Notes: generated by a model not told the origin, from the letters alone. Counted from the stretch's first letter, positions 1,381 to 54,599 are shown. The stretch: 64,000 bases of DNA from an uncultured Gemmatimonadaceae bacterium (GCA_963716745.1 OY970320.1:320001-384000); one strand, 5' to 3'. Numbers and translations are program-made.

Positions 1381-1383
1381 GGG

Positions 1384-3566
<2,183 letters not shown>

Positions 3567-3570
<4 letters not shown>

Positions 3571-3860: not shown

Positions 3861-3863
3861 CGC

Positions 3864-4870: not shown

Positions 4871-4871
4871 G

Positions 4872-9587: not shown

Positions 9588-10894
9588 CGGTCGATCTCCC
9601 CCATGACAATGTCGATGCTCGCGTTGATCGCGATGACGTCGGAGAGCAGATGCCCTTCGACCATCTTCGGGATGGCGGAGAGGTTCACGAAGCTCGGCGG
9701 CCGGATGCGCCAGCGCACCGGCTTCGCCGAGCCGTCCGAGACCATGTAGTAGCCCTTCTCCCCCTTCGGGCTCTCGACCGCGACGTACGATTCCCCGATC
9801 GGCGGACGCGGGCCTTCCATGATCTGCTTGAAGTGATGGATCATCGATTCCATGTCGCTCATCGCCTTGCTCTTCGGCGGCAGCACCACGCGATGGTCGG
9901 CGCTGTTCACCGGCCCATCGGGCAGCCGCTCGAGCGCTTGCGCGAGGATGCGCGTGCTCTGGCGCAGCTCCTCGAGGCGCACGAGGAAACGATCGTACAC
10001 ATCGCCCTGCGATCCCACGGGAACGGTGAAGTCGTACGTCTCGTAGTCGAGATACGGGAAGTCCTTGCGCACGTCGTACGCGACGCCGCTCGCGCGGAGC
10101 ATCGGGCCCGAGAGGCCGCAGTTGGTCGCTTCCTCCGCCGACAGCGCGCCGAGTCCGATCGTGCGGCCGATCCAGATCGCGTTGCGCGTGAGCATGCGAT
10201 CCACTTCGTCGATCGTCTTCGGGAACGTCTGCACGAAGTGGCGCAGCTGCTCGGTCCAGCCATCGGGGATATCGGCCGCCATGCCGCCGACACGCGTCGC
10301 GCTCGTCGTGAGCCGCGCGCCCACCCAGCTCTCGAGCATGTTGTAGACGTTCTCGCGCTCCTGGAAGCTCCACAGGAACGGCGTGAACGCGCCGATATCG
10401 ATGCACGTCGTGCCGAGCCATACGAGATGCGAGATGATCCGCGACAATTCCATCGCGATCACGCGCAGCACAATGCAGCGCGGCGTGATCTCGATCCCGA
10501 ACAGGCGCTCCGCGCCAAGCGAGAACGCGACGTTGTTCCCGATCGAATTGAGATAATCCTCGCGGTCGGTCCACGGCACGATCTGATTGTACTGCCGGTA
10601 CTCGCCGATCTTCTCGAAGCCGCAGTGCAAGTAGCCGACATGCGGGATGCATCGCACCACCGTCTCGCCATCGAGCTCGAGCACCAGTCGGAGCACGCCG
10701 TGCGTCGCCGGGTGCTGCGGCCCGATGTTGATGAGCATATGCTCGCCCGCGAGTTCGGGTTCGAGCGCCGCCGGCGGATCCATCGTGATGACGTTGCCGC
10801 CTTCGTTCATCGTGAGCGGCGCGCGATGCGGCCGCCCCTGCGCATCGAGGCCGGATGTGCCGAGCGCCACCTCGACCGTGCGTTTCGTGGTCAT
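9584..10894 (-). CDS. nuoD: NADH-quinone oxidoreductase subunit D
   Basis: NIGPQHPATHGVLRL, GYLHCGFEK and the C-terminal DIVMGEIDR. Confidence 0.97.
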   Translation of the reverse strand: MTTKRTVEVALGTSGLDAQGRPHRAPLTMNEGGNVITMDPPAALEPELAGEHMLINIGPQHPATHGVLRLVLELDGETVVRCIPHVGYLHCGFEKIGEYRQYNQIVPWTDREDYLNSIGNNVAFSLGAERLFGIEITPRCIVLRVIAMELSRIISHLVWLGTTCIDIGAFTPFLWSFQERENVYNMLESWVGARLTTSATRVGGMAADIPDGWTEQLRHFVQTFPKTIDEVDRMLTRNAIWIGRTIGLGALSAEEATNCGLSGPMLRASGVAYDVRKDFPYLDYETYDFTVPVGSQGDVYDRFLVRLEELRQSTRILAQALERLPDGPVNSADHRVVLPPKSKAMSDMESMIHHFKQIMEGPRPPIGESYVAVESPKGEKGYYMVSDGSAKPVRWRIRPPSFVNLSAIPKMVEGHLLSDVIAINASIDIVMGEIDR

Positions 10895-10897
10895 CGG

Positions 10898-11599
10898 CTA
10901 CTCACCGGTCTTCTCACCGCTGCTGAGCCGCTCGCGCATCTCGGCGGGCAGATCCTCGAACGCTTGCGAGATCGACAGCTCTTCCATGGAGTAGCGCGCC
11001 TCCGGATTCGCCGCGAGCGCCTGGCGCAGCTGCTCGGCGCGCGAGAATCGTCCGCGCAGCGGGAAATCCTTGCGCAGCGGGAATCCCTCGCGGTACTGCT
11101 CCCACATCAGGATGCGCCGGAGATCCGGGTGGCCGCTGAAGGTGATGCCGAACATGTCGTAGCACTCGCGCTCGAGCCAATCGGCGCCCTTGTACACGGG
11201 CCACACGCTCTGCACGTCGAGTTTCGCGCCCGGGTCGAGCAGCACTTTGAGCCGCAGGAAACGCCGGAATGGAATCGACCGCAGATGCCACACGACCTCG
11301 AGCGGCTGCTCGGGGTCGCGGAATTCCACCGCCGTCACGTCGGACAGATAGTCGTATCGCTGCGTGGGATCGTCATGCAGCCAGCGGACGATCTCGAGGA
11401 GCCGCGCGCCGTCGACGATCACCGAGGTCTCGCCCCATACGACATCGGTGCGCCGCACCGCCGCGCCGAACTTCTGCTGGAGCGCCGCGGCACTCGGATT
11501 GGCCGCGCCTCCGCGATGCGGAATGTTCTTGGGCGTGACCGGCGCCGCGGCGCCCGGATCGGCGCTGCCGGGGATGACCGTGGCGATCGCGTTGCTCAC
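10898..11599 (-). CDS. nuoC: NADH-quinone oxidoreductase subunit C
   Basis: [25 protein letters not shown] and FPLRKDFPL. Confidence 0.96.
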
Positions 11600-12222
11600 G
11601 TGGCCGAACGCGTCTGGTTCACGGAGTTGCCGAACGGCTCCGAGAGTTCATCGATGGCTTCCGGCGCCATGTAGAGGCCGCTCACCGGATCGGCCTCCAT
11701 CTCGTTCCGGATCGCGACGTTCGACATCCGCTCCCGCTTCACCTTCTCCTGCAGCATCATGATGCCGTAGATCAACCCTTCCGGGCGCGGCGGGCAGCCG
11801 GGCACATAGACATCCACCGGAATGATCGTGTCGATCCCCTGCACCACGGCGTAGTTGTCGAACATGCCGCCCGTACTCGCGCATGCGCCCATTGAGATGC
11901 ACCACTTCGGCTGCGGCATCTGGAGCCAGATGCGCCGGATCACCGGCGCCAACTTGAACGGCACGCGTCCCGCGCAGATGAGCAGATCGGCCTGCCGCGG
12001 CGAGAAGCTCATGCGCTCCATGCCGAAGCGCGCGAGGTCGAAGCGGCTGGCGGCCGTGGCCATGAACTCGATCGCGCAGCACGCAGTACCGAAGGGCATC
12101 GGCCAGAGTGAGTTCGCGCGCGACCAATTCACCAGGAAGTCGAGGCGCGTGGCGATCCAGCTCTCGCTCTGCTCCGGATCGTAGGTCGTGACGGACGTCG
12201 CCGGCTTGACGGTCAATCCCAT
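11596..12222 (-). CDS. nuoB: NADH-quinone oxidoreductase subunit B
   Basis: [25 protein letters not shown] and [12 protein letters not shown] at 12222. Confidence 0.97.
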
Positions 12223-12617
12223 TGGAGCGCCCCCTTCTTCCAAACGTAAATGAGGCCGACGAGGAGGATGAGGATGAACACGAGCATCTCGGCGAGTCCG
12301 AAGAACGACAGCTGCCCCGACGGGCATGCGCCGGCGGCGAGCGGCACGGCGCACGAGAGCGCGCGATAGTACGCGGCCCACGGCAGCATGAACACCGTCT
12401 CGATGTCGAAGACAATGAACAGCATGGCCACCATGTAGAACTTCACGGAGAAGCGCTCGCGGGCGTCGCTGAGCGTGGGGATCCCGGACTCGTACGCTTC
12501 CTGCTTGGCGGGCGTGGGCCGCGCGCGGATCACCAATGCGGACAACGCCAGCATCATCACCCCGTTGAGGGCGACGAATCCGAACAACATCAGAATCGGG
12601 AAGTAGTCGCTGACCAT
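12213..12617 (-). CDS. nuoA: NADH-quinone oxidoreductase subunit A
   Basis: [23 protein letters not shown] and WKKGALQW. Confidence 0.96.
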
Positions 12618-12660
12618 CCGGCTCCGGCGCTGGTGACGATTTCCCTTACTCCGCGCGCGA

Positions 12661-12690
12661 AAGGTATCGCGGCGGCGGCAGCAGTGTCAA
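12661..12690 (-). promoter_or_regulatory. Putative sigma70 promoter of the nuo operon
   Basis: Minus-strand TTGACA-N18-TACCTT, ~45 nt upstream of nuoA. Confidence 0.5.
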
Positions 12691-40439: not shown

Positions 40440-40979
40440 CTACTGCTGCGGCGGCGCTGCCTGCGGCGGCGGCTGACGGCGCTGTCCGCGCCCCTGCCCA
40501 TTCCCGCCGCCCTGCCCCTGCATGTTCGCCAGTCGCTTGCGCACCTGTTCCTGTATCCCGAGGTACTGCGCCCGCTGACTCGGCGTGAGGAACGCCGAGA
40601 GATCCTTCTGCTCGCTCTGCAATATCGCGAGCCGCTGCTGCTGCACGCCGATCATCTGATCGAGCAGCCGCGCGATGAGCTTCTGATCGGCTTGATCGCC
40701 GCGGATCACTTCGGCGCGAATGGTGATGCGCAATTCGCGCTCCTGTTGCAGCAGGAGGAATCGCTTCTGCTCGTATTTGCGATTCACGGCGCCGAGCAGC
40801 ACCAGCTGTGAATCGGTGAGATTGAGCTGCCGCTTCACGATCTGTCCCAGCCGCTGACGGAATTGTGAATTGCCGGGGTCAGGCGCCGCGCCCGAGTCAC
40901 CGGTCTGTGCGCCAAGCGGCGCCACGAGGGCGCCGCCGAGTACGATGAGCGTGATCGCGTGCCGCATAGTTCGGATCAT
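40440..40979 (-). CDS. Periplasmic Spy/CpxP-like (LTxxQ) protein
   Basis: Signal peptide, LNLTDSQ and FLTPSQRAQY motifs, Gln-rich helices; ATG overlaps the anti-sigma stop. Confidence 0.75.
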   Translation of the reverse strand: MIRTMRHAITLIVLGGALVAPLGAQTGDSGAAPDPGNSQFRQRLGQIVKRQLNLTDSQLVLLGAVNRKYEQKRFLLLQQERELRITIRAEVIRGDQADQKLIARLLDQMIGVQQQRLAILQSEQKDLSAFLTPSQRAQYLGIQEQVRKRLANMQGQGGGNGQGRGQRRQPPPQAAPPQQ

Positions 40980-41563
40980 TGCGTACTCCCAAGATCGATG
41001 ACCGCTTCCGGCTCCGCGTCGGGTGCCGGCGCGCTCCTCTCCAGATCGCTGAGCAACGCGTTCGCCTGCGCGGGCGAGAGTTCCTCGCCGCCGCCGAAAC
41101 TGAGCCCCACGGGTGCAGGCGCCGCCGCCGGGGGCGATACGACAGGTACAGCCGCCGGCGCCTGTTGCATTGGGTGCGAGTAGATCTGCGAAGGGCCCGT
41201 CGCGACCTGCGCCGGCCGAACGCGACCAACATAGTAGCCCGTCGCTCCCACCACCACGAACAGCACGGCCGCCGCCACGCGCCATACGTACTGCGGCAGC
41301 GGACGCGGCATCTGCGCCAGCTCGGGCCGCGTCTTCGGCACCGGGCGCGCGGCCTTCGCCGCCGTCACGATGCGCTGCACATCCACCGCCGGCGCGTGCG
41401 TCGCGATCGCCGCGCTCATCGAGCGTAGAAGCGCCACCTCGGCGCGGCATTCCGCGCAACCGGTGAGATGCGCCTCGACGCGCGCGCGCTCCGCGCTTCC
41501 GAGCGTGCCATGCACGTACTCGGGCAACCGGTCGCGGATCTCGTTCTGCAGGCAGTCGGTCAT
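40976..41563 (-). CDS. Zinc-finger (HxxxCxxC) membrane anti-sigma factor
   Basis: HLTGCAEC, one TM segment (WRVAAAVLFVVVGATG), directly downstream of the ECF sigma. Confidence 0.88.
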   Translation of the reverse strand: MTDCLQNEIRDRLPEYVHGTLGSAERARVEAHLTGCAECRAEVALLRSMSAAIATHAPAVDVQRIVTAAKAARPVPKTRPELAQMPRPLPQYVWRVAAAVLFVVVGATGYYVGRVRPAQVATGPSQIYSHPMQQAPAAVPVVSPPAAAPAPVGLSFGGGEELSPAQANALLSDLERSAPAPDAEPEAVIDLGSTQ

Positions 41564-42111
41564 GTGAGCAACTCCTTGATCGTGCGCATCGCGTTGTGAT
41601 AGTGCACTCGGGCGGCGCCCTCGCTGCTCCCCAACACGGTCGCGATATCCTTGTACGACATCCCCTCGGCCACGCGCAAGGTGAAGACTTCGCGCTGCAT
41701 CGGAGTGAGCTTTCCCACGGCGTCCATCATCCGGCCTTCCGTCTCCTCGGCCACCGAGTCGTCCAATGCGTCGTGCCCGGTCACCGCGTGCTGCTCTTCG
41801 ATCTCCACCATCTTCCGCTCGAACTTGAGACTGCGAACTCTATCCCTCACGAGGTTCCGCGCGATCGTGCAAAGCCAGGTTCGCAGCGCACTGTCCCCCC
41901 GAAAACTTTCCAGACTCCCAAAGGCCCGGATGAAGGTGTCCTGCACGACATCTTCGACATCTTCCCGCACGCCGATGCTCGCGACATAGCGCGAGAGCGA
42001 CGGCGCATGGCGCTCCACCAGCAGCGTTGCGGCCCGTTCGTCCCCGGCCTGCCAGCGCGCGATCAGCACGCTGTCGTCCGGATCGTCCGGCGATCGGGTG
42101 GGTTGGGTCAT
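41560..42111 (-). CDS. ECF RNA polymerase sigma factor
   Basis: EDVVQDTFIRA, FRGDSALRTWLCTIARN and LTPMQREVFTLRVAEGMSYKDIA. Confidence 0.93.
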   Translation of the reverse strand: MTQPTRSPDDPDDSVLIARWQAGDERAATLLVERHAPSLSRYVASIGVREDVEDVVQDTFIRAFGSLESFRGDSALRTWLCTIARNLVRDRVRSLKFERKMVEIEEQHAVTGHDALDDSVAEETEGRMMDAVGKLTPMQREVFTLRVAEGMSYKDIATVLGSSEGAARVHYHNAMRTIKELLT

Positions 42112-42225: not shown

Positions 42226-42849
42226 TTGGCGATAGCGAACAAGGACCAGAAGCTGGATGCCCTCCTCTCCGCGGCCGCCCGGGTGTTCGCCGAGCGCGGA
42301 TACCATCAGACGAGCATGCGCGACCTGGCGCGGGCGAGCGGAGTGTCACTGGCGGGCCTCTACTATTATGTGGAGAGCAAGGAGGAACTGCTCTTCCTGA
42401 TCCAGCAGCGCAATTTCGAGCGGGTGATCGCCGGGATGCGCGAGAGCCTCGCCGGGACCACGGACCCGGTTGATCGGCTGATGAAATTCATCGACAATCA
42501 CCTGGATTACTTCGCCTCGCACATGGCGGAGATGAAGGTGCTCTCGCACGAGGCCGGCGCCCTGTCCGGGGAGCCCCTGCACATCGTGAACGAGATGAAG
42601 AGCGAGTACACCCGCGCTCTCATGGACATACTCGCGGGCATCGAGGAAACACATGGCCCGGCGCATGCCAACCGGCGCGTCGCGGCGTATTCGCTGTTCG
42701 GCATGATGAACTGGATCTACAACTGGTACGACCCGCTGGGCGACCTCGGCGTGGAGCTGCTGGCGCAGAACGTGTGCCGGATCTTCTTGGGCGGATATGT
42801 AGGGCTCCCGGTGGCGATCTCGTCTCTGCCCCGCACGTCCGCCGGGTGA
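42226..42849 (+). CDS. TetR/AcrR family regulator (PaaR/KstR2-like, acyl-CoA-sensing type)
   Basis: HTH AAARVFAERGYHQTSMRDLARASGVSLAGLYYYVESKEELL; C-terminal LFGMMNWIYNWY; TTG start after GGAGG. Confidence 0.92.
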   Translation: MAIANKDQKLDALLSAAARVFAERGYHQTSMRDLARASGVSLAGLYYYVESKEELLFLIQQRNFERVIAGMRESLAGTTDPVDRLMKFIDNHLDYFASHMAEMKVLSHEAGALSGEPLHIVNEMKSEYTRALMDILAGIEETHGPAHANRRVAAYSLFGMMNWIYNWYDPLGDLGVELLAQNVCRIFLGGYVGLPVAISSLPRTSAG

Positions 42850-42863
42850 GTGGACTCCTCTCA

Positions 42864-42944
42864 ATCTTGTTAATCCTGTCAGATGCTCTTCCCATTCACT
42901 ACGAAAAACTGCTTTGACAGGATTGACATGATGAACAACATGAT
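42864..42944. repeat. Inverted repeat made of 9-nt periodic units
   Basis: ATCTTGTTAATCCTGTCA (42864-42881) vs TGACAGGATTGACATGAT (42915-42932), 16/18 complementary; units TTGACAGGA/TTGACATGA. Confidence 0.65.
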
Positions 42945-42996
42945 GGGAATGGCACTGACTCACGGCTAACGTCTCACTCATTTTCAAGGAAAGACT

Positions 42997-43809
42997 ATGA
43001 CTGCCACCATGAATGAAAAAGCCGCCGCGACGCTCGTCACCTACCGCAAGGAAGGCAATATCGCGGTGTTCGAGCTGAACGATCCGCCGGCGAACACGTA
43101 CACGCACGAGATGATGCGCCAGCTCGATGAGTGCATCATCAAGGCGCGCTTCGACAACGATGTGCAGGTGATCATCCTGCGCGGCGCGGGCGAGAAATTC
43201 TTCTCGGCCGGCGCGAACATCAACATGCTGAACACCGTGGACCCGGTGTTCAAGTACTACTTCTGCCTGCACGCGAACGAGACGCTGAGCCGGCTGGAGC
43301 AGACGCCGAAGCTCGTGATCGCCGCGCTCAACGGCCACTGCGTGGGCGGCGGACTCGAGATCGCAATGGCGGCGGACATCCGCCTCGCGCGGCAGGACGC
43401 TGGCAAGATCGGACTCCCCGAAGTGAACCTCGGCGTGCTCCCGGGCACGGGCGGCACGCAGCGGCTGCTCCGCATCGTGGGCAAGTCGAAGGCGATCGAA
43501 CTGATGGTCACCGGCCGCACGTTCAGCTTCGAGGAAGCGCAAACGATGGGGATCGTGAACGAAGTGTTCCCCAAGGATGAGTTCTGGGAGAGCGTGATGC
43601 TCTACGCCAAGCAGTTCACGCTGCCCGGGAAGGCTGCGATGGCCGTGGGCCACATCAAGCGCGCCGTGCAGAGCGGCGGCGAAGTGCCGCTCGAGTACGG
43701 GCTGGCGATGGAGCGCGAGCTTCAGAGCCTCCTCTTCAAGAGCGGCGATGCGAAGGAAGGCATGGCCGCGTACGTCGAGAAGCGGCAGCCGAACTTCAAG
43801 GGGAAGTGA
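42997..43809 (+). CDS. Crotonase-family protein resembling the N-terminal catalytic domain of BoxC
   Basis: SAGANINML...KYYFCLHANET, NGHCVGGGLE and GLPEVNLGVLPGTGG. Confidence 0.85.
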   Translation: MTATMNEKAAATLVTYRKEGNIAVFELNDPPANTYTHEMMRQLDECIIKARFDNDVQVIILRGAGEKFFSAGANINMLNTVDPVFKYYFCLHANETLSRLEQTPKLVIAALNGHCVGGGLEIAMAADIRLARQDAGKIGLPEVNLGVLPGTGGTQRLLRIVGKSKAIELMVTGRTFSFEEAQTMGIVNEVFPKDEFWESVMLYAKQFTLPGKAAMAVGHIKRAVQSGGEVPLEYGLAMERELQSLLFKSGDAKEGMAAYVEKRQPNFKGK

Positions 43810-45282
43810 GCGCCGCGGTGACCGCCGCCGCGGAGCGGTTCCCGACGCAGCTAGTGATCGGCGGCGAGCGGGTGGATGCCGCCGGCGGCCGCACGTTCGA
43901 CGTGGAGAACCCGGCCACCGAGGAGATCATCGCGCAGGTGGCCGAGGGCGACGCGGTCCGACGTGGACCGCGCCGTCGCGAGCGCGCGCGCGACCTTCGA
44001 GAGCGACGGCTGGCGCAAGATGAGCGCGCGCCAGCGCGGTGCGGCGGTCTCGAAGCTCGGCGAGTTGATCGCGCAGCATGCCGACGAACTCGCGCGACTC
44101 GAGACGCTGAACAACGGCAAGCCGCTCTTCGAGTCGCACATCGATGTGCGGCTCACGGCCGACACGTTCAAGTATTATGGCGGCTGGGCGGACAAGATCC
44201 ACGGGGAAACGATCCCGGTGGACGGCAACTATCTCAACTACACCCTGCGCGAGCCGCTCGGCGTGATCGGCGCGATCACGCCGTGGAATTTCCCGATGTC
44301 GCTTGCGGCGTGGAAGCTCGCGCCGGCACTCGCATGCGGGAATACGATCGTGCTCAAGCCGGCGACGCAGACGCCGTTCACGGCGATTCGCATGGCGGAA
44401 TTGGCGCTGGAGGCCGGACTGCCCGCGGGCGCGTTCAATTGCGTGCCCGGCCAGGGGAAAGCGGCGGGCATGGCGCTCGTGCGACATCCCGACGTGGACA
44501 AGATCGCGTTCACGGGGAGCACGGAAGTCGGCAAGATGGTGATGCGCGAGGCCGCGAGCACCGTGAAGAAGTTGTCGCTCGAGCTGGGCGGCAAGTCGCC
44601 CGAATATCGTCTATGCCGATGCCGACCTCGACGCCGCGGCGCGCGGTGCGCTCACCGGCATCTTCTACGGCAAGGGCGAAGTGTGCGCCGCCGGTTCGCG
44701 GCTGCTCGTGGAGGACACGATCCGCGAGGAACTCACGGCCAAGATCCTGCGAGCGCGCCAAGAAGATGGTCGCGGGCGATCCGCTCAATCCCAAGACGCG
44801 CCTGGGCGCGATCGTCTCGCGCGCCGCAGATGGAAAGCGTGCTCGGCTACATCAAGAAGGGCCGCGACGAGGGCGCGCAGTTGCTCTCGGGCGGCGAACG
44901 CACGCCAGTGAACGGCAAGGGCTACTTCGTTCAGCCGACGATCTTCGGCGGCGTGGAATCGAAGATGACCATCGCGCGCGAGGAGATCTTCGGCCCGGTG
45001 CTGGCGATGATGCAGTTCAGCGGCGGCTTCGACGGCGCGACCGCGCTCGCGAACGACACGATCTACGGTCTCGCCGCCGGCATCTGGACGCGCGACGTGG
45101 GCAAGGCGCTCCGCACCGCGCGCGCCGTGCGCGCGGGCACGGTGTGGGTGAACACCTACAACATCTACGACGCCGCGTCGCCGTTCGGCGGCTACAAGCA
45201 GAGCGGCTTCGGGCGCGAACTCGGCATGTACGCGATCGACGGCTACACGCAGATCAAGTCGGTGTGGGTGGATCTCTCGTGA
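43806..45282 (+). CDS. NAD(P)-dependent aldehyde dehydrogenase (four apparent frameshifts at ~43955, ~44600, ~44750 and ~44825)
   Basis: NPAT, ITPWNFP, FTGSTEVG, LELGGKSP, GEVCAAGSR, EEIFGPV and PFGGYKQSGFGRE, spread over three frames. Confidence 0.92.
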
Positions 45283-46491
45283 ATTCACGCGACGCCGTGA
45301 TCGTTGACGCGGTGCGGACGCCGGTCGGCCGCCATGGCGGCGCGCTGGCCCGCGTGCGCGCCGACGATCTCGCGGCCGTCGCGATCGCCGGACTCGTGGA
45401 ACGCACGAAGCTCGATCTGAAGTCGATCGACGATGTGATCTTCGGTTGCGCGAACCAAGCTGGCGAGGACAACCGCAACGTCGCGCGCATGTCATCGCTG
45501 CTCGCGGGATTGCCCGTGGAGGTGCCGGGGCAGACGGTGAACCGCCTCTGCGGCTCCGGTCTGCAGGCGATCGCGAGCGCGTCGCACGCGATCCGCGCGG
45601 GTGAAGGCGACGTATTCATCGCCGGCGGCGTGGAGAGCATGTCGCGCGCGCCGTGGGCGACGCTCAAGCCCGACGAGGCGTTCACGCGGAACGCTCAAGA
45701 GTCCGCGGACACCACCGTCGGCTGGCGATTCGTGAATCCGAAGATGCCGGCGGAGTGGACGATCTCTTTGGGCCAGACCGCCGAGGAGGTCGCGAAGCGA
45801 TGTAAGGTATCGCGCGAAGACCAGGACAAGTTCGCGCTCGAGAGCCAGCAGCGGGCGGCGAGCGCGATCGCGGCCGGCAGATTCGCCGGCGAGATCGTGC
45901 CGGTGCGCGTGCCCGGCAAGAAGGGCGCGGACGACGGTCGTGGACAAGGATGAGCACCCCCGCCCCGAGACGACGCTCGCCTCGCTCGCGGCGATGAAGC
46001 CGGCGTTCGTCAAGACCGGCGGCACGGTGACGGCCGGTACATCGAGCGGCATCAACGATGGAGCGAGCGCGGTGCTCGTGATGTCGGCGGATGGCGCCAA
46101 GCGCGCGGGAAAGACCGCTATGGCGCGCATCGTCGCGACCGCGGTGGCGGGCGTCTCACCCGAGGTCATGGGGCTGGGCCCGATCCCCGCGATCCGGAAG
46201 GCGCTCGAACGAGCCGGGCTCGCGCTCAAGGACATCGACCTCATCGAACTCAACGAGGCGTTCGCGTCGCAGGCGCTCGCGTGCATGCGCGAGCTGGACA
46301 TGGACGCGGCACGCGTGAACGTGAACGGCGGCGCGATCGCGCTCGGTCATCCACTGGGCGCGTCGGGCGCCCGGATGATCACGGCGCTCGCGCACGAGAT
46401 GCGCCGCCGCAAGGTGCGCTACGGCCTCGCGTCAATGTGCATCGGCGTCGGGCAAGGGATCGCGATGATCATCGAGCGGGTGGACGCGTGA
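45279..46491 (+). CDS. Thiolase, 3-oxoadipyl-CoA thiolase (PaaJ/PcaF) type (frameshift near 45935)
   Basis: [45 protein letters not shown] and MCIGVGQG. Confidence 0.92.
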
Positions 46492-47283
46492 AGTACGAGA
46501 ACATTTTGCTCGCGCGCGAGGCGGGTGTGGGCACGCTCACGCTCAACCGGCCGGACAAGCTCAATGCGTTCGCGGGCGAGATGCGGCGCGAGCTCGGCGA
46601 CGCGCTCGAGGAACTCGAGGCGGACAAGACGGTGCGCGTGATCGTGATCACCGGCGCGGGGCGCGGATTCTGCGCCGGCGCCGATGTGGGTTACATGGCC
46701 GAGCTGATCGCGACGAAGGATATCGTGGCGATGGGTGCGCTCATCGAAGCGGGGCGCCGCGTGGTCGGGCATCATCCGGAAGTCCGCGAAGCCGGTGATC
46801 GCGTCGGTGAATGGCGTGGCCGCAGGCGGCGGCGCGAATCTCGCGCTCGCGTGCGACCTGCGCATTGCGAGCCGCGACGCCAAGCTCGGGCAGACCTTCA
46901 ATCGCATCGGCCTGCACCCCGACTGGGGCGGCACGTATTTCCTGCCCCGCCTCGTGGGGCCGGCCAAGGCGCTCGAACTCTTCTGGCTCGCCGACGTGAT
47001 CGACGCCGATGAGTGCCTGCGCCTGGGACTGTTCAATCGCGTGGTCGCGGCCGACGCGCTGGCCGCCGAGACCAGCACGCTCGCGCGCGCCCTCGCCGCC
47101 AAACCCGCGATGGCGATCGCGATGGCCAAACGCGCGGTGTACGAATCGCTCTCCAAGACATTGCCCGAAATGCTCGACTACGAACTTGACGCGCAGATCC
47201 GCTGCTTCCAGAGCGGCGACGCGCGCGAAGGGATCACGGCGTTCACCGAGAAACGCGCCCCGAAATTCTCCACCGCCACCTGA
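46488..47283 (+). CDS. Enoyl-CoA isomerase, PaaG-like (frameshift near 46765)
   Basis: [34 protein letters not shown] and [19 protein letters not shown] (single Asp, no catalytic Glu pair). Confidence 0.85.
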
Positions 47284-47294
47284 CGGAGCGGCAT

Positions 47295-48410
47295 ATGGCA
47301 CTCACGAAGATCACGAACTTCGACGACTGGATCGACCTGTTCAAAGTGTGGCAGGACGACATCGGCGTGGACGCGTCGGAGCTGAAGGACTACAAGTTCG
47401 ACGTGAAGCTCGCCGACCTCGACATCCCCGAGATCGAATTCGGCCACTACGCCGGCGGCACGAAGTGGAAGACGGTGATGCACATTCCCGACCAGCGCAT
47501 CCGCGATGCGCTGCAGACACTCATCATCTTCCAGGGCGACACGGAATTCGCGAGCGTGGAACAGCAGCGCGCGCTGCTCCAGAACGCGCCGAGCGACTAC
47601 GACCTCATGTCCATCTACCGCGTGATGGCGGAAGAGATGCGGCACGGCTGGCAGATGTCGTATCTGCTCGTCACGCATTTCGGCGACGAGGGGAAGCGCG
47701 AAGCCGAGAAGCTGCTTTCGCGCCGCGCCGACGAGCACGAGCGGCTCCTCGGCTCGTTCAACGAAGCGGTGGAGAACTGGCTCGATTTCTTTGCCTACAC
47801 GGAGTTCATCGACCGCGACGGGAAGTACCAGCTGCAGATGATGTCCACGTCGGCCTTCGCGCCGCTCGCGCGCTCAATGAAGCCGATGCTCAAGGAGGAA
47901 TCGTTCCACCTCGGCACCGGGAACAATGGCTTGCTGCGGATCATCAAAGCGGGCAAGATCCCCACACCCGTGATGCAGCGCTATTTCAACAAGTGGGTAT
48001 CCACGGCGTTCGATCTCTTCGGCACCGACCGCTCGAGCTCGGCGCAGTGGGCGTACACGTGGGGCTTGAAGGGCCGTTTCGACGAGCGCACGAATCCGCA
48101 GCCGGCCGACGCCGCGCGGCTCAACGAAGCGGCGCGCGAGCTCTACCGGCAGGAAGTCCAGGGCTTGATCGACCGGTTGAATACCTACGTCGGAGAGGAC
48201 GAGCAGAAGCTCATGATCCCGAACGTGAAGTTCAACCGGCGCATCGGCGAGTACAAGAAGATGCACTTCGACGTGCACGGCGAACCGATCTCGTCAGTGG
48301 GATACGAGGCCTACGTGGCGTCGGTGCTGCCCACCGCCGAGGATCGCGAATTGCTGCGCAACATCTTCAAGGAAAACGACTGGATCCAGCCCAAGAAGAG
48401 TGACGACTAG
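47295..48410 (+). CDS. Ferritin-like di-iron acyl-CoA epoxidase, BoxB-like (371 aa)
   Basis: QGDTEFASVEQQR, APSDYD, EEMRH, FIDRDGKYQL and FAPLARSMKPMLKEESFH; candidate ligands E84, E114, H117, D173, E202 and H205. Confidence 0.85.
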   Translation: MALTKITNFDDWIDLFKVWQDDIGVDASELKDYKFDVKLADLDIPEIEFGHYAGGTKWKTVMHIPDQRIRDALQTLIIFQGDTEFASVEQQRALLQNAPSDYDLMSIYRVMAEEMRHGWQMSYLLVTHFGDEGKREAEKLLSRRADEHERLLGSFNEAVENWLDFFAYTEFIDRDGKYQLQMMSTSAFAPLARSMKPMLKEESFHLGTGNNGLLRIIKAGKIPTPVMQRYFNKWVSTAFDLFGTDRSSSAQWAYTWGLKGRFDERTNPQPADAARLNEAARELYRQEVQGLIDRLNTYVGEDEQKLMIPNVKFNRRIGEYKKMHFDVHGEPISSVGYEAYVASVLPTAEDRELLRNIFKENDWIQPKKSDD

Positions 48411-49113
48411 CTTCGAGCGCCCACGGCTCATCGCACATCGCGGGATCGCCCGCGAGCGGCCGGAGAACACCCTGCCGGCGTTCTTGCGCGCGCTCGAACT
48501 CGGCGCCGACGGGATCGAGCTCGATGTGCATTGCACCAAGGATCAGGTGGTCGTAGTGCACCACGATGACGTCCCCAGGGCGAAGTCGCCGAACCGCGCA
48601 CTCGCGGGGAAGCGCATCGACGCGCTCACATTCGATGAACTCGAGGGCTTCTCCGTAGAGGGCCAAGCGCTCATCCCGACGCTCGCCGAGGTACTTGGCG
48701 CGCTGCGCGGCCGTCTCGACGTGTTCGTGGAACTCAAGGCCGCCGGCATCGAAGGACCGGTGCTCGACGTGATCCACGACTCGCCCGCCCCGGCACGCTG
48801 CGCGGTGCACAGCTTCGACCATGAAGCGATCCGCCGCTGCCGGTCGGTGGCGCCGACCGTGCGCGGCGGCATCTTGTTCGACAAGCCGCCGGGCGATGTC
48901 GTGGCGGCAATGCGTCACGCCAATGCGCGCAATGTATGGCCGCGCGAGGATCTCATCAATGCCGCGCTGGTGGGCGCGGTGCACGGCGCCGGCGGGCGCG
49001 TGCTCGCGTGGACCGTGAACAAGCCGGAGCGCGCGCGAACGCTCGCGGAGCTGGGCGTGGACGCGCTGTGCACCGACACGCTCGTGGAGCTGCGGCAGGC
49101 GCTGGGCGAATGA
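48400..49113 (+). CDS. Glycerophosphodiester phosphodiesterase family protein
   Basis: IAHRG, PENTLPAF, GIELDV, HD, ELK, WTVN and TD. Confidence 0.9.
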   Translation: MTTSFERPRLIAHRGIARERPENTLPAFLRALELGADGIELDVHCTKDQVVVVHHDDVPRAKSPNRALAGKRIDALTFDELEGFSVEGQALIPTLAEVLGALRGRLDVFVELKAAGIEGPVLDVIHDSPAPARCAVHSFDHEAIRRCRSVAPTVRGGILFDKPPGDVVAAMRHANARNVWPREDLINAALVGAVHGAGGRVLAWTVNKPERARTLAELGVDALCTDTLVELRQALGE

Positions 49114-49973
49114 CGGAACCAAGGCGCGTCGCGGTGATCGGCGCCGGAACAATGGGACACGGCATCGCGTACGTTGCGGCGCTCAGCGGGTACCGCGTGC
49201 GGCTCACCGACGCGGACCCGGCGCAGATCGTGCGCGGCATGGATGCGATCGCGGCGGCGTTCGAGAAGGCGATCGGACGCGGGAAGGTGACCGCCGAGCA
49301 GCGCGATGCCGCGATCGCAAATCTCACTGCAGTGACGAGCGTCCCGGATGCCGTTCGCGATGCCGTTCTCGTGATCGAGGCGATCCCCGAACGGATCGAG
49401 CTCAAGCAAGCGCTCTTCGGACAGATCGAGCCGCTGGTCTCGGACGGAACGCTGCTGGCCAGCAATACGAGTTCGCTGTCGATCGATGAGATCGGCGAGG
49501 GGCTCCAGCATCGCGAGCGCGTGATCGGGCTGCACTTCTTCAATCCCGTGCCGGTGATGCAACTGCTCGAGATCGTGCGCGGCCCACAGACGAGCAGTGC
49601 GGCGGTCCTCTTCGCGTCTCTATTCGCCGCGCGCATCGGCAAGTCGCCGATCGTCGTGCGCGACACACCAGGATTCGCGACGAGCCGCCTCGGCGTCGTG
49701 CTCGGCCTTGAGGCGATCCGGATGCTCGAGCAGGGCGTCGCGAGCGCGGAGGACATCGACCGGGCGATGGAGCTTGGCTACAACCATCCGCTCGGCCCGC
49801 TCCGTCTCACCGACCTCGTCGGACTCGATGTACGGCTCGCGATCGCCGATCATCTGCATGCGACGCTCGGGGGCGCGACCTACGCGGCCCCGGAACTGCT
49901 CCGCCAGAAAGTGCGCGAAGGAAAATTGGGAAAGAAATCGGGCGAAGGCTTCTACCGCTGGGAGAATGGATGA
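49110..49973 (+). CDS. 3-hydroxyacyl-CoA dehydrogenase (PaaH/Hbd type)
   Basis: VIGAGTMGHGIA, IEAIPE, ASNTSS, GLHFFNPVP and DLVGLDV. Confidence 0.93.
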   Translation: MTEPRRVAVIGAGTMGHGIAYVAALSGYRVRLTDADPAQIVRGMDAIAAAFEKAIGRGKVTAEQRDAAIANLTAVTSVPDAVRDAVLVIEAIPERIELKQALFGQIEPLVSDGTLLASNTSSLSIDEIGEGLQHRERVIGLHFFNPVPVMQLLEIVRGPQTSSAAVLFASLFAARIGKSPIVVRDTPGFATSRLGVVLGLEAIRMLEQGVASAEDIDRAMELGYNHPLGPLRLTDLVGLDVRLAIADHLHATLGGATYAAPELLRQKVREGKLGKKSGEGFYRWENG

Positions 49974-50752
49974 TGAGCGACGACGTCGTGCTCTACGAAG
50001 TGCGCGGCCGCGTGGCCGTGGTCACCGTGAACCGGCCGGACAAGCGCAACGCCCTCAGCCAAGCCGTGCGAAGCGGGATCATCGCCGCATTCGAGCGGGC
50101 GCGCGACGATCAGGCGGTACGCGCGATCGTCATGACCGGCGCAGGCGACAAGGCCTTCATCGCGGGCGCGGACATCGGCGAGTTCGAGGGCCGCTCGCCG
50201 GTGGACCAGTGGCGATCGATGTCGGCCGCGCCGGTGTTCGACGCCGCGGAGAAGCTCCCCAAGCCGATCATCGCCGCGATCAATGGATTCTGTCTGGGCG
50301 GCGGGATGGAGATGGCGCTCTCGTGTGACATCCGGATCGCGTCCAGCGCCGCGAAGTTCGGCCAGCCCGAAGTGAATCTCGGGATCATCCCCGGTGGCGG
50401 CGGCACGCAGCGGCTGCCGCGCGTGGCGGGCGTGGGCGCGGCGCTGCGGCTCATCCTCACGGGTGACATGATCGACGCGGCTGAGGCATTGCGGTTGGGC
50501 ATCATCTCGGAAGTGACGGAGCCGGCGCAGCTCATGCCTCGCGCGATGGCGATCGCGGAGACGATCGCATCGAAGAGTCCGGTGGCGGTGGCGGCGGCAA
50601 AAGAAGCGACGCGGGCGGCGTTGAGTCTGCCGCTGGAAGATGGGCTGAGGGCGGAGCGGGCGCTCTTTGCGATCTGCTTCTCGAGTGAGGATAAGGTGGA
50701 GGGCGTGAGGGCGTTCCTCGAAAAGCGGCCCGCTGAGTTCAAGGGGCGCTAG
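49970..50752 (+). CDS. Enoyl-CoA hydratase (PaaF/crotonase type)
   Basis: AFIAGADI, LGGGME and FGQPEVNLGIIPGGGGTQRL (both catalytic Glu present). Confidence 0.92.
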   Translation: MMSDDVVLYEVRGRVAVVTVNRPDKRNALSQAVRSGIIAAFERARDDQAVRAIVMTGAGDKAFIAGADIGEFEGRSPVDQWRSMSAAPVFDAAEKLPKPIIAAINGFCLGGGMEMALSCDIRIASSAAKFGQPEVNLGIIPGGGGTQRLPRVAGVGAALRLILTGDMIDAAEALRLGIISEVTEPAQLMPRAMAIAETIASKSPVAVAAAKEATRAALSLPLEDGLRAERALFAICFSSEDKVEGVRAFLEKRPAEFKGR

Positions 50753-50766
50753 TGGTACCGCTAAAG

Positions 50767-50865
50767 GCGGGACTGGTACCGCTGGCGGCGGGATTGGCGT
50801 TGGGGAACGGACCCGCGGAGGCTGAGCTCCAACGCCAATCCCGCCGTCAGCGGTGCCAGTCCCGC
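50767..50865. repeat. 37-bp-arm inverted repeat (REP/MITE-like hairpin)
   Basis: 50767-50803 vs 50829-50865 are 35/37 complementary. Confidence 0.8.
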
Positions 50866-50881
50866 ATTTCTGAGACGACGA

Positions 50882-51754
50882 ATGATTGACTCGTCACAAT
50901 ATCGGATTACCGACTTTCATATTCACGTCCAGCCCCTCCGTCAACTCAAGCCGGCGGTGATGGACGTGATGCGCCGCGGCAAGGAGCAGTATTTCGACTC
51001 CGTCATGGCGATGATGGACGATCCGAAGCTCCTGCTGCGCGTCATGGATGAACAGGGGATCCAGCGCGTCGGCATGGTGAATTATCCGAGCCCGAACATC
51101 ATGGGCTTCGATGACAGCACCAATGATTTTGCGGCGAAGTACGCCGCCGCGGACCCCAAGCGCCTGCTGCCGTATGGCGGCGTCGATCCGGTGACCACGC
51201 CCGATAAGAAGAAGGCGGCCGCGAAGGTCGAGGATCTCTTGAGCTTTGGCACGCGGGTGCTCAAGCTGCATCCGCCCCACCAGAATTTCGCGGCGAACGA
51301 TTACACCCGCGGACTGGACTCGCTGGCCGCGATCTACCGGACGTGCGAGGCGCGTGGCTTGCCCGTGCTGATCCACACGGGCACGAGCATCTTCCCCGGC
51401 GCCCGCAGCAAGTACGGCAATCCAATGGAGCTGGACGACGTCGCGATCGACTTCCCCGCCTTGCAACTGATCATGGCCCATGGCGGACGGCCGCTCTACA
51501 TGGAAGAAGCGTTCTTCATCCTGCGCCGGCACCGGAACATGATGCTCGATCTGTCCGGCATCCCGCCGCGCGCGCTGCTGGAATACTTCCCGCGCATTGC
51601 GGAGCTCGAGCGCCAATTACTCTGGGGCACGGATTGGCCCAGTCCCGGCGTGGAGAGCATGCGCAAGAACGTCGATCAGTTCCTCGCGCTTCCCTTGGCC
51701 GACAGCGTGAAGCGCGCCGCGCTCGAGACGAATCCCGAGCGCTTGCTCCCCTAG
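50882..51754 (+). CDS. Amidohydrolase_2 family metal-dependent hydrolase/decarboxylase
   Basis: DFHIH, KLHPPH, IHTG, AHGG and WGTDWP. Confidence 0.88.
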   Translation: MIDSSQYRITDFHIHVQPLRQLKPAVMDVMRRGKEQYFDSVMAMMDDPKLLLRVMDEQGIQRVGMVNYPSPNIMGFDDSTNDFAAKYAAADPKRLLPYGGVDPVTTPDKKKAAAKVEDLLSFGTRVLKLHPPHQNFAANDYTRGLDSLAAIYRTCEARGLPVLIHTGTSIFPGARSKYGNPMELDDVAIDFPALQLIMAHGGRPLYMEEAFFILRRHRNMMLDLSGIPPRALLEYFPRIAELERQLLWGTDWPSPGVESMRKNVDQFLALPLADSVKRAALETNPERLLP

Positions 51755-51886: not shown

Positions 51887-53316
51887 ATGCGCCAGTTCGC
51901 CGTCGCGCTCGCACTCGTGTTCGCCGGCACGGTCTCGGCACAGCAACCCGCCAAGTCGTCCGGTGCGAGTGACAGCGCCAAGAAGACCCCGCCAGGCAAG
52001 GGAGCCGTCGCGCTTCCCCTGGCGGACCCATTCCCAAGTACGTACAAGCCGTTCCCGTCGAAGACGACGCTCATCAAGAACGCGACCATCCTCACGGCCG
52101 CGGGCCCGCGGATCGTCGGCGGCTCGGTGCTGCTGCAGGGCGGCAAGATCGTGGCCGTCGGTACGAACGTGGCGGCGCCCGCCGATGCGGTGGTGATCGA
52201 CGGCACCGGCAAGTTCGTCACGCCTGGCCTGATCGACACGCACTCGCACCTGGGCGTGTACTCAGCGCCGGGCGTCGAGGCGAACAGCGACGGCAACGAA
52301 GCGGTTCGTCCGAACACGGCGTATGTGTGGGCCGAGCATTCGGTGTGGCCGCAGGATCCGCAGTTCCCGCGCTCGCTCGCTGGCGGCATCACGACGCTGC
52401 AAGTGCTCCCGGGTTCGGCGAACCTGTTCGGCGGCCGCAGCGTGGTGCTGAAGGTCGTTCCGTCGCGCCAGCGTGCAGGGGATGAAATTCCCCGGCGCCA
52501 AGTACGGCCTCAAGATGGCCTGCGGTGAGAATCCGAAGCGCGTGTACGGCAACCGCGGCGGACCGCAGACCCGCATGGGCAACGTCGCCGGCTACCGGCA
52601 GGCGTGGATCGATGCCGAGGCGTACCGCCGCTCGTGGGACAAGTACCTCGCGGATCCCAGCAAGGGCGATCCGCCGCGCCGCGATCTCGGCATGGAGACG
52701 CTCGCCGAAGTGCTGCGCGGGAACATCCTCGTCCACAATCACTGCTACCGCGCGGACGAGATGATGCAGATGATCGACATCGCGAACGAGTTCGGCTACA
52801 AGATCCGGTCGTTCCACCACGGCGTGGAAGCGTACAAGATCGCGAACGTGCTGGCGAAGGATTCGATCGCCGGCTCGCTCTGGGCCGATTGGGGCGGCTT
52901 CAAGATGGAGGCGCTCGACGGCATCGAGGCGAACCTCGCGCTGCTGGACCACGCGGGCGGCATCTCGATCACGCACTCCGACGACGCGTCGGGTGAGCAG
53001 CGCTTGAACCAGGAGACGGCGAAGGCCATCGCGGCGGGCCGCGCGATCGGGCTCGATGTCTCCGAGGACCAGGCGATCAAGTGGAACACGATCAATCCGG
53101 CGTGGGCGCTCGGCCTCGACAGCCAGATCGGCTCGATCGTTGTTGGTAAGAACGCCGACGTGGTGCTCTGGTCGGGCAATCCGTTCAGCGTGTACACGCA
53201 CGCCGAGATGGTGTGGATCGACGGCGCGATGCTCTATGACCGCGCGGACCCGCAAGATGAATTGGAAGACGGACTTCGAACTCGGCTTCGTGCATACCGC
53301 GGGAGGGAGCAACTAA
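51887..53316 (+). CDS. Secreted amidohydrolase (frameshifts at ~52470 and ~53255)
   Basis: Signal peptide, TPGLIDTHSHLG, LKMACGENPKRVYG, HNHCYR, FHHG and HSDD; C-terminus TDFELG...GGSN* in the 53056-53316 frame. Confidence 0.85.
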
Positions 53317-54599
53317 TGCGCCGCTCACACTTCGGGCTCATTGCCCTCGCCACTGTCCTGGCCGCGGTCACGCTGCCGGCACAGACGATCGCCATCACCG
53401 GCGGCACGGTCTATCCGGTGAGCGGTCCTGCGATCAAGAACGGAACGGTGGTCATCACGAACGGGAAGATCACCGCGGTGGGCGCGAACGTCGCGATCCC
53501 CGCGGGTGCTACGAAGATCGACGCCACCGGCAAGTGGGTGACGCCAGGCCTCGTGAATGCGACGACGGCGGTCGGTCTGTTCGATGTGGGTTTCGGCGCC
53601 GATGCGAACGAGTCGCACGCCGAAGGCGCGGACCACGTCTCGGCGAGTTTCCAGCCGTGGCTCGCGTACGATCCGGCGAATGTACTCATCGCGGACAATC
53701 GCGAGTACGGCATCACGACGGCCGGCATCTGGCCGCGCGGCAATCTCGTCGCGGGACAGGGCGCGTTCGTGGACCTCGGCAGCGGTACGCTCGCGAGCAT
53801 GCTGCTCAAGGGACCGGTGGGCATGTCGGCGACGTTCGAAGGCAGCCGCAATGCGGGGGTGGGCGCGGAAGCCGAGCTCATCGAGAAGCTGCGTGAGCTG
53901 CTCGACAACACCAAGACGTACATGGCGAACAAGCTGGCGTATAACGGCGCGAAGATGCTGCCGTTCGCCTTCCGCCGCGCGGACATGGAAGCCATGATCC
54001 CGGTGGTCACGGGGCGCATTCCGCTGGTGCTCGATGTCGACAAGGCATCGAACATCATTCAGGCGCTCAAGATCGGCAGCGACTACAAGATCAAGCTGGT
54101 GCTCGCCGGCGGTGGGGAAGGCTGGATGGTGGCCAAGGAGATCGCGGCCGCGAGAGTGCCGGTGATGGCCGGTGCAATGAACAATATTCCCTACAACTTC
54201 ACGATGCTCAATTCGCGGCAGGAGAACGCCGCGATCATGAAGAAGGCGGGCGTGACCGTCGTGCTCATCGGCAACGCCGGCGGCGGCGACGAGGACGCGT
54301 TCAACATCCGCAACATCCGCTATGAGGCGGGCAATGCGGTGGGTTATGGCATGTCGTGGGACGATGCGCTGGCGGCGATCACATGGGCGCCGGCGATGGT
54401 GTTCGGCGTGAGTGACAAGGTGGGCGCGCTCAAGCCGGGAATGGAGGGGAACGTCGTGGTGTGGAGCGGCGACCCGTTCGAGTTCGCGACGCGCGCGGAG
54501 CACGTGTACATCCGCGGCGTGGAGAACACGACTCCTTCGAGACAGGATCTGTTGACGCAGCGGTACAAGACGCTGCCGGCGGATTACTCTAAACCCTAG
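53316..54599 (+). CDS. Secreted amidohydrolase-fold protein lacking the HxH metal motif
   Basis: ATG overlaps the upstream TAA; signal peptide; IDATGKWVTPGLVNATT; ALAAITWAPA and VVWSGDPFE. Confidence 0.85.
   Translation: MRRSHFGLIALATVLAAVTLPAQTIAITGGTVYPVSGPAIKNGTVVITNGKITAVGANVAIPAGATKIDATGKWVTPGLVNATTAVGLFDVGFGADANESHAEGADHVSASFQPWLAYDPANVLIADNREYGITTAGIWPRGNLVAGQGAFVDLGSGTLASMLLKGPVGMSATFEGSRNAGVGAEAELIEKLRELLDNTKTYMANKLAYNGAKMLPFAFRRADMEAMIPVVTGRIPLVLDVDKASNIIQALKIGSDYKIKLVLAGGGEGWMVAKEIAAARVPVMAGAMNNIPYNFTMLNSRQENAAIMKKAGVTVVLIGNAGGGDEDAFNIRNIRYEAGNAVGYGMSWDDALAAITWAPAMVFGVSDKVGALKPGMEGNVVVWSGDPFEFATRAEHVYIRGVENTTPSRQDLLTQRYKTLPADYSKP

Follow-up and report, generated by a model that had tools for sequence, protein, structure and literature searches.

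A short BoxB-like di-iron protein exchanged for PaaABCD-like genes in a putative aromatic acyl-CoA operon of uncultured Gemmatimonadota

Aerobic ring epoxidation that depends on coenzyme A (CoA) is known in two forms, BoxAB with BoxC in the degradation of benzoate, and PaaABCDE with PaaG and PaaZ in that of phenylacetate. The subject of this study is an operon at positions 42226-51754 of a 64,000-nucleotide stretch (the window) from an uncultured Gemmatimonadaceae bacterium (GCA_963716745.1, OY970320.1:320001-384000). The operon encodes a TetR-family regulator, three crotonases (ECH1, ECH2 and ECH3), an aldehyde dehydrogenase (ALDH), a thiolase, a di-iron protein of the BoxB type (short BoxB), a GDPD-family phosphodiesterase, a 3-hydroxyacyl-CoA dehydrogenase (HADH) and an Amidohydro_2 protein (Amh2). 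An earlier note, made from the sequence of the window, had proposed that this cluster, which matches neither known form, may be a new, self-contained route. The orthologous loci described below support a better description, that of a paa-type operon in which PaaABCD is exchanged for short BoxB. We place about even confidence in the full reading, namely that a TetR-controlled operon of this type would serve the aerobic, CoA-dependent breakdown of an aromatic acyl-CoA, with the single short BoxB in place of PaaABCD.

The paa clusters of E. coli, Pseudomonas and Thermus, including the PaaR-regulated forms, in which PaaABC(D)E is the oxygenase, display the same operon logic. Common to both are a PaaG-like isomerase, a PaaJ/PcaF-like thiolase, a PaaF-like hydratase, a PaaH-like dehydrogenase and a TetR regulator. 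The operon differs from these clusters in that one polypeptide, remote from PaaA (39 bits), stands for four subunits, a separate crotonase and ALDH stand for PaaZ, PaaK and PaaE are lacking, and GDPD and Amidohydro_2 genes are added. BoxB of the BoxAB system (Azoarcus/Aromatoleum evansii; 3PER, 3PF7, 3PM5 and 3Q1G; TIGR03225) has the same fold and the same six iron ligands as short BoxB, which, unlike BoxB, lies in a paa-type operon of a genome without BoxA or BoxC. A further point of comparison is NF046063, a crotonase-type oxepin-CoA hydrolase that, with a separate ALDH, forms a non-fused alternative to PaaZ. The operon likewise has a stand-alone crotonase beside a stand-alone ALDH and no PaaZ, but its crotonases all stay below the NF046063 cut-off of 300 bits (ECH1 127, ECH3 173, ECH2 orthologue 199), so that none is a member.

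The exchange is most clearly seen in loci that contain ECH1 but not short BoxB. ECH1 neighbourhoods were fetched from 12 such genomes, and all five Gemmatimonadales loci among them (L104, L105, L108, L109 and L110) share the operon backbone, in the order sigma factor (opposite strand), TetR, ECH1, ALDH, (thiolase), ECH2, GDPD, HADH, (ECH3) and Amh2. Nothing lies between ECH2 and GDPD in these loci; instead, a 2.6-kb insert between TetR and ECH1 holds PaaA-, PaaD-, PaaB- and PaaC-like genes, the PaaA-like protein scoring 198 bits on PF05138 and the PaaB-like protein 31.7 bits on PF06243 (cut-off 27).

The two oxygenases are mutually exclusive across 201 Gemmatimonadota genomes, a single sample that served the searches for ECH1, BoxB-type, PaaA-type, BoxA and PaaK proteins. 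ECH1 orthologues (62-87% identity) are present in 95 of these genomes, short BoxB in 45, with a canonical-type BoxB in 2 more, and the PaaA type, sought with the PaaA-like protein of a sister operon, in 51. The 95 ECH1 genomes divide into 44 with short BoxB and 51 with the PaaA type; none has both oxygenases and none has neither. G042 is the single short-BoxB genome that gave no ECH1 match, and its short-BoxB gene lies 3.8 kb from the start of the contig. Three unpublished genomes (G157, G182 and G097) are included in the counts; their removal lowers the numbers to 42, 50 and 92 but leaves the pattern as it was.

The backbone proteins diverge no more across the swap than within one variant. 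Median identities to the proteins of the window, or of its closest relative L012, were compared between the short-BoxB variant of the sister family and the PaaABCD variant, and came to 71% versus 72% for ECH1, 63% versus 64% for ALDH, 67% in both for the thiolase, 56% in both for HADH and 65% versus 63% for Amh2. As the downstream enzymes are undiverged across the exchange, it is most likely that both oxygenases supply them with one type of product. A shared product would favour phenylacetyl-CoA, or a close analogue, as the substrate in the Gemmatimonadota.

Short BoxB (47295-48410, + strand) is an intact protein of 371 residues. It matches TIGR03225 (BoxB) with 248.6 bits in three stretches, PF05138 with 50.3 bits and the PaaA model with 39.2 bits; a search of the whole genome with TIGR03225 returned 204 + 34 bits in the same frame. 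The best solved relative is BoxB (E 6e-59), with ∼47-50% identity over the catalytic core (residues 29-218). An AlphaFold2 model of the protein (predicted local distance difference test score 93, predicted template-modelling (TM) score 0.90) retrieved BoxB chains at ranks 1-10 in Foldseek, with TM scores of 0.88-0.91 (query length) and 0.69-0.72 (target length). These data bear out the claim of the earlier note that the di-iron protein is BoxB-like and shortened, by ∼100 residues compared with the ∼473 of BoxB; it is the N-terminal segment and two insertions that are missing. The BoxB iron ligands given in an excerpt of PMC5489048 (E120, E150, H153, D211, E240 and H243) align with E84, E114, H117, D173, E202 and H205 of short BoxB, so that all six are kept. 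Five benzoyl-CoA contact residues named in the same excerpt (Q116, T119, S123, F193 and F203) are also kept. Across the family alignment the six ligands show little or no variation, save in a divergent paralogue, P0182. Most of them are gone from this short-family protein of 367 residues (31% identity), which may be a non-catalytic, PaaC-like paralogue.

Short BoxB is best classed as an intact, compact member of the BoxB-like branch of PF05138. It is placed outside BoxB proper because it falls below the equivalog cut-off, is found without the partners of BoxB and is ∼100 residues shorter, and it is a presumed aryl-CoA ring epoxidase. The family to which it belongs is large: 5250 proteins reached an E value of up to 0.001 among the 7999 candidates scored, 983 cluster representatives were counted at 50% identity, and in the collection scanned members occur in at least 586 species genomes. 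Many members are labelled ‘benzoyl-CoA 2,3-dioxygenase component B' by JGI, and the NCBI label is ‘Phenylacetic acid catabolic protein', while matches in the ESM Atlas were solely to ‘BoxB family protein' clusters. Prediction of a complex between short BoxB and ECH1 gave a score of 0.01 and a mark of 0.32, which counts neither for nor against binding.

In the proposed pathway short BoxB would epoxidise the ring of an aryl-CoA, for which phenylacetyl-CoA or a near analogue is the likeliest candidate, with O2 and two electrons from a donor encoded outside the operon. Isomerisation and then hydrolytic ring opening to an aldehyde would be carried out by the PaaG-like ECH2 and the hydratase-type ECH1, and the aldehyde would be oxidised by ALDH. 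ECH2 would act as a PaaG-type isomerase, because it lacks the two hydratase glutamates in a reading of its sequence, whereas ECH1 and ALDH together would be the split equivalent of PaaZ. A more specific proposal is advanced only tentatively, and with less than even confidence: short BoxB may be a self-sufficient, single-subunit aryl-CoA ring epoxidase that took over the task of PaaABCD on phenylacetyl-CoA, served by a non-dedicated electron donor or, in Binatia and related lineages, by a NuoEF-like one.

The genes of the operon, called from Pfam and NCBIfam scans with inspection of starts and stops, all lie on the + strand in the order that had been described. From ECH1 to ECH3 the eight genes follow one another closely, either across gaps no longer than 11 nucleotides or with overlaps of start and stop; the seven junctions include four GTGA/ATGA overlaps, one 11-nucleotide overlap, in which the GDPD start precedes the stop of short BoxB, and one 11-nucleotide gap. 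The gene set, its order and its tight coupling are therefore as first reported, being confirmed by the scans, by these junctions and by recurrence in Gemmatimonadota loci.

ECH1 (42997-43809) is a 270-residue, single-domain crotonase (PF00378, 196 bits) with both hydratase glutamates. These residues, E121 and E142, which we take to correspond to the catalytic glutamates of the rat enoyl-CoA hydratase, do not vary among 31 orthologues drawn from several phyla, in which mean column identity is 74%. The best solved relative of ECH1 is 2PPY; BoxC (2W3P) was last of the 60 matches listed. ECH1 is an ordinary crotonase, equally present in the PaaABCD sister operons, and the view that it is a shortened BoxC was not upheld. 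It is a candidate for the ring-hydrolysing or hydrating enzyme that would follow the oxygenase. ALDH (43806-45282; PF00171, 472.8 bits in two stretches) belongs to the NAD(P)-dependent, BADH/StyD-like class, which provides its best NCBIfam families.

The remaining enzymes resemble those of the lower Paa pathway, in line with what had been claimed for them. The thiolase (45279-46491) is nearest to 3-oxoadipyl-CoA thiolase (PcaF/PaaJ) and matches the pcaF model in two pieces (model positions 5-215 and 219-400); the intact L012 thiolase scores 566.8 bits on NF006551, below the cut-off of 605. The L012 orthologue of ECH2 (46488-47283), a PaaG-like crotonase of the isomerase type, scores 230.5 bits on TIGR02280 (PaaG; cut-off 345). 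HADH (49110-49973; PF02737 206.6 bits, PF00725 104.3 bits), with a PaaH-like role predicted, scores 314.6 bits on NF006722 (cut-off 429) and 238.6 on PaaH (cut-off 669). ECH3 (49970-50752; PF00378, 237.4 bits), an enoyl-CoA hydratase with a predicted PaaF-like role, has both catalytic glutamates and scores 253.9 bits on NF007239 (PaaF; cut-off 371). PaaG, PaaJ, PaaF and PaaH are thus the best or near-best families of the operon enzymes, all of which score below cut-off.

Two further genes are kept in both the short-BoxB and the PaaABCD variant of the operon. GDPD (48400-49113; PF03009, 125 bits) has its catalytic motifs, and we know of no Paa or Box step that needs an enzyme of this type. Use of glycerophosphocholine or choline, suggested by GDPD and the BADH-like ALDH, was considered and dropped, as nothing else in the operon fits. 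Amh2 (50882-51754; PF04909, 113.4 bits) is a predicted cytoplasmic member of a metal hydrolase or decarboxylase family, and its sole solved relative, 3IRS, is uncharacterised.

Conservation of the neighbourhood was assessed by tblastn of the window proteins on the 80 best short-BoxB loci, counting only loci with enough flank. These loci come exclusively from metagenome-assembled genomes (MAGs) of Gemmatimonadota, Acidobacteriota, Binatia, Rokubacteria and others. The survey shows the cluster to be conserved across the order. In Gemmatimonadota loci TetR was found in 28 of 28, ECH1 in 29 of 29, ALDH in 31 of 31, the thiolase in 36 of 36, ECH2 in 38 of 38, GDPD in 38 of 39, HADH in 35 of 38, ECH3 in 17 of 35 and Amh2 in 30 of 32. 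The corresponding fractions in other phyla were 12/29, 17/29, 6/30, 0/31, 7/37, 0/38, 5/33, 6/33 and 2/32.

Loci from other phyla bring neighbours of their own. Two Binatia loci (L058 and L061) have a gene of the benzoate-CoA ligase family (646 bits, cut-off 375) immediately downstream, a PaaX-like regulator accompanies one locus, and trios resembling 4-hydroxybenzoyl-CoA reductase (Hcr) occur in the same operon in six Acidobacteriota loci. The Hcr-like copies scanned all fall below cut-off, with alpha (L066) at 932 bits (cut-off 995), beta (L080) at 347 (405) and gamma (L080) at 181 (258). A NuoE-like [2Fe-2S] protein is encoded nearby in 12 loci and a NuoF-like flavoprotein in 10. In the four loci inspected (L065, L067, L081 and L090) a 108-residue thioredoxin-like [2Fe-2S] protein and a 419-residue NuoF-like flavoprotein are encoded directly 3' of short BoxB. 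The NuoE/NuoF-like pairs are found in Binatia, delta-proteobacterial and Thermodesulfobacteriota MAGs, often with a GAF-PtsP-like gene upstream. Such a pair is a candidate dedicated NAD(P)H reductase of the short-BoxB family. Collectively, these neighbours link the family to aryl-CoA metabolism and suggest lineage-specific electron donors.

The genome of the window contains no BoxA, PaaE, PaaZ, PaaK or over-cut-off member of the benzoate-CoA ligase family, in keeping with the gaps that the earlier note saw in the operon. The best matches to PaaZ/PaaN reached 129 bits (cut-off 563). PaaA, PaaB and PaaC subunits were not found, short BoxB being the sole PF05138 match in the genome and the only protein retrieved, at 26% identity, by a sister PaaA-like query. 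PaaI and PaaY are not among the operon genes, neither having been the aim of a search. The absence of a ligase and a reductase had been viewed as a peculiarity of this cluster. As the PaaABCD-type sister operons are likewise without PaaK and PaaE nearby, however, the lack characterises these lineages rather than short BoxB; PaaK is over cut-off in 6 of the 201 Gemmatimonadota genomes.

Candidates for the missing parts were sought elsewhere in the genome. A dedicated reductase akin to the NuoF-like partner of the Binatia type was rejected: the genome has two relatives, neither linked to the operon. One of them belongs to a gene (G000:C1:3111677-3115402; L097:4678-8403) in which a single frame contains molybdopterin-binding, NuoE-, NuoF- and NuoG-like domains and which resembles an NAD-linked formate dehydrogenase, although this long frame may have arisen artificially, through missing stops or frameshifts. 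A three-subunit enzyme of the xanthine dehydrogenase family (L098; G000:C1:2433165-2437055), most like 4-hydroxybenzoyl-CoA reductase, was rejected as the reductase of the operon, as it sits among K+ transport and efflux genes; its Hcr-like alpha pieces, split over three frames, sum to ∼778 bits against a cut-off of 995. The benzoate-CoA ligase of the Binatia type has no orthologue in the genome (best identity 32%). Among the 201 genomes the only matches to the BoxA model score ∼147 bits, cover the reductase half (model positions 137-406) and come from one genus (G109, G112, G149 and G176), all with the PaaABCD-type operon, and may represent PaaE-like reductases whose genes lie at other places in these genomes.

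Several results count against a paa-type operon in which short BoxB does the work of PaaABCD. No ligase was found in the genome, PaaK reaching 23 bits (cut-off 646) and the benzoate-CoA ligase family 222 (cut-off 375). No electron donor was found either: PaaE gave zero matches, BoxA at best 29 bits (cut-off 459) in this genome and no match over cut-off in any of the 201, and the two NuoF-like relatives are the NuoF of complex I, encoded in the window, and the domain of the formate-dehydrogenase-like gene described above. Short BoxB scores half of what membership of TIGR03225 demands (248.6 versus 499.1 bits). Its second shell differs from that of BoxB throughout the family (P121 to F, F206 to Y and T210 to I/V), and these changes imply that its substrate or regiochemistry may differ from those of BoxB. 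The activity of the family is a prediction from sequence and fold. The PaaA type of the sister operons is itself below the equivalog cut-off (123 versus 280 bits), which leaves the sister substrate likewise uncertain. Finally, the genomes are related and not independent, so that separate swap events must be far fewer than 95.

A serious alternative, although we consider it unlikely, is that the operon is of the Box type, with benzoyl-CoA or a ring-substituted benzoyl-CoA as substrate and ECH1 as an analogue of BoxC. BoxB is the closest characterised relative of short BoxB, whose retention of the five contact residues listed in the excerpt cited above is consistent with such a substrate. The benzoate-CoA ligase and Hcr-like neighbours in Binatia and Acidobacteriota also point to benzoyl-type rather than phenylacetyl-type substrates, which further weakens the case for phenylacetyl-CoA. 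The gene set covers every step of the Box lower pathway; it fits the Paa and Box lower pathways equally well. ECH1 is the best match in the genome to the BoxC model TIGR03222, but the score is 82 bits (model positions 43-227) against a cut-off of 712, and the protein is of the single-domain hydratase type, with 270 residues in one domain compared with ∼550 in two. Neither BoxD- nor PaaN-type models are among the 25 best NCBIfam families of ALDH. The equal conservation of ECH1 and ALDH in the PaaABCD sisters argues against this alternative, as the C6 intermediates of the Box route and the C8 intermediates of the Paa route are hard to reconcile with one set of downstream enzymes.

It is improbable that the substrate is not aromatic at all, that is, that short BoxB hydroxylates, desaturates or deoxygenates some other acyl-CoA, or is an accessory protein, in an operon for general β-oxidation. 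Such a role would account for the scores of the backbone enzymes, none of which reaches a Paa or Box equivalog cut-off, for the lack of ligase and reductase, and for the conserved GDPD and Amidohydro_2 proteins, which fit nowhere in the Paa and Box routes as known; related neighbours, moreover, are missing from about half of the loci in other phyla. It does not explain why short BoxB is exchanged exclusively for a PaaA-PaaD-PaaB-PaaC module and follows ECH1 in a one-to-one pattern, why aryl-CoA ligase, Hcr-like and PaaX genes appear beside it in three other lineages, or why the substrate-contact residues of BoxB, as far as the excerpt lists them, are conserved.

The description of the operon requires a further correction, beside that on ECH1. 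Its gene set is present, but ALDH, the thiolase and ECH2 are frameshifted as assembled, which the earlier note overlooked. The shifts were placed by a plot of codon-position GC and by tblastn with the intact proteins of L012. ALDH has four +1 insertions (near 43954, 44602, 44749 and 44825), which put the stretch with the catalytic cysteine out of frame relative to the intact L012 orthologue. The thiolase has a single +1 shift between 45922 and 45992, and ECH2 one near 46766-46774. Two more +1 shifts (near 52470-52492 and 53254-53261) lie in the first of the amidohydrolase genes downstream of the operon. All eight shifts in the 43.8-53.3 kb region are +1 insertions in the window, and none falls in a long homopolymer. 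Logan short-read contigs of four soil or rhizosphere runs from four studies were compared with the window over 43800-47300. Near-identical contigs are one base shorter at five of the six operon sites (43954/5, 44602, 44749, 44824/6 and 46766/70), at the ECH2 site in three runs. The run that provides the best contigs (X1) may be the source sample of the genome. The thiolase site has almost no contig depth and is thus without independent cover, which counts against an intact operon.

Genes elsewhere in the genome, which is a single contig of 3.29 Mb with a marker completeness of 89.8%, are split likewise, namely an acyl-CoA ligase at 1.538 Mb (G000:C1:1538197-1539839) and an Hcr-like molybdoenzyme at 2.435 Mb (2434322-2436559). 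The +1 pattern resembles a systematic error of assembly or polishing, and the split genes suggest a genome-wide problem. GC content at third codon positions remains high in the shifted frames. The frameshifts are very probably assembly errors, because contigs at five of the six sites are without the extra base, all eight shifts are +1 and genes elsewhere are split in the same way; the operon is therefore taken to be functional in the organism. Real decay, in which the frameshifts in ALDH, the thiolase and ECH2 have left the pathway no longer functional in this genome, is very improbable: it could draw on the crowding of six shifts into 3.5 kb of the operon, on the single-frame, full-profile Pfam matches of the housekeeping genes scanned elsewhere in the window, and on the thiolase site, but it is opposed by the contigs of four studies, by a uniform sign that is unlike random decay, by the codon-position signal, by the split genes elsewhere and by a completeness that, for a single contig, fits an error-prone assembly.

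The phyla in question abound in soil and are largely uncultured. If short BoxB is indeed a self-sufficient epoxidase that took over from PaaABCD in an otherwise unaltered operon, it would represent a third architecture of CoA-dependent aerobic attack on the aromatic ring, one that is common among the uncultured phyla of soil (Gemmatimonadota, Acidobacteriota, Binatia and others). The natural exchange indicates that a single gene may provide the oxygenase where four subunits are the rule, a point of interest for the recruitment of electrons by di-iron epoxidases and for the engineering of aromatic catabolism. Short-BoxB members may also be misassigned in metagenome-based counts of Box or Paa pathways, since the JGI and NCBI labels for the family differ. 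In agreement with the novelty claimed earlier, no paper was found, in a literature search that covered sources outside subscription journals, that describes short BoxB, its exchange with PaaABCD or a cluster with this architecture. The main text of a study on remodelling of the paa pathway (PMC13186573), as far as it was available and excluding its supplements, contains neither ‘BoxB' nor ‘Gemmatimon', and the available part of PMC10581226 touches only briefly on genes for benzoyl-CoA degradation in MAGs of Gemmatimonadota.

The regulatory context of the operon is conserved in part. The TetR-family protein (42226-42849; PF00440 58.8 bits, PF17932 83.3 bits) is a candidate for the repressor, with a putative PaaR-like role. 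The idea of a conserved operator in the TetR-ECH1 spacer was rejected: the spacers of the six closest loci, ∼35-230 nucleotides long, fail to align (mean column identity 25%), and the one in the window contains no inverted repeat with arms within 30 nucleotides. By eye, the same spacer has a perfect 10-base inverted repeat, AATCCTGTCA / TGACAGGATT, at 42871-42880 and 42916-42925, with arms 35 nucleotides apart, the second of which overlaps a TTGACA hexamer; this repeat is not kept in the six closest loci. In one relative (L016:2530-2756) the spacer is a tandem array with units of ∼12-14 bases (CACCGAACACCGAT...), which is absent from the window.

Upstream and divergent from the operon, on the - strand, lie genes for an extracytoplasmic function (ECF) sigma factor (41560-42111; Pfam Sigma70_r2/r4_2) and a zf-HC2 anti-sigma factor (40976-41563; Pfam zf-HC2). 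A sigma homologue occupies this position, on the opposite strand, in most Gemmatimonadota loci of both operon variants, so the pair is, by its recurrence, a conserved upstream context that does not imply regulation of the operon. Downstream, two tandem amidohydrolase genes (51887-54599, + strand), recognised by Pfam Amidohydro_1/3 and by tblastn with L012 orthologues, are probably neighbours outside the pathway with apparently secreted products; the N-terminus of the first is hydrophobic and rich in Ala, Leu and Val, a putative signal peptide as judged by eye. The nearest protein and locus matches of the window are to Gemmatimonadaceae MAGs. The rest of the window comprises housekeeping genes and an ordinary complex I (nuo) operon at 1-12686 on the - strand, with NuoL/M, NuoI, NuoH, NuoG, NuoF, NuoD, NuoC and NuoA.

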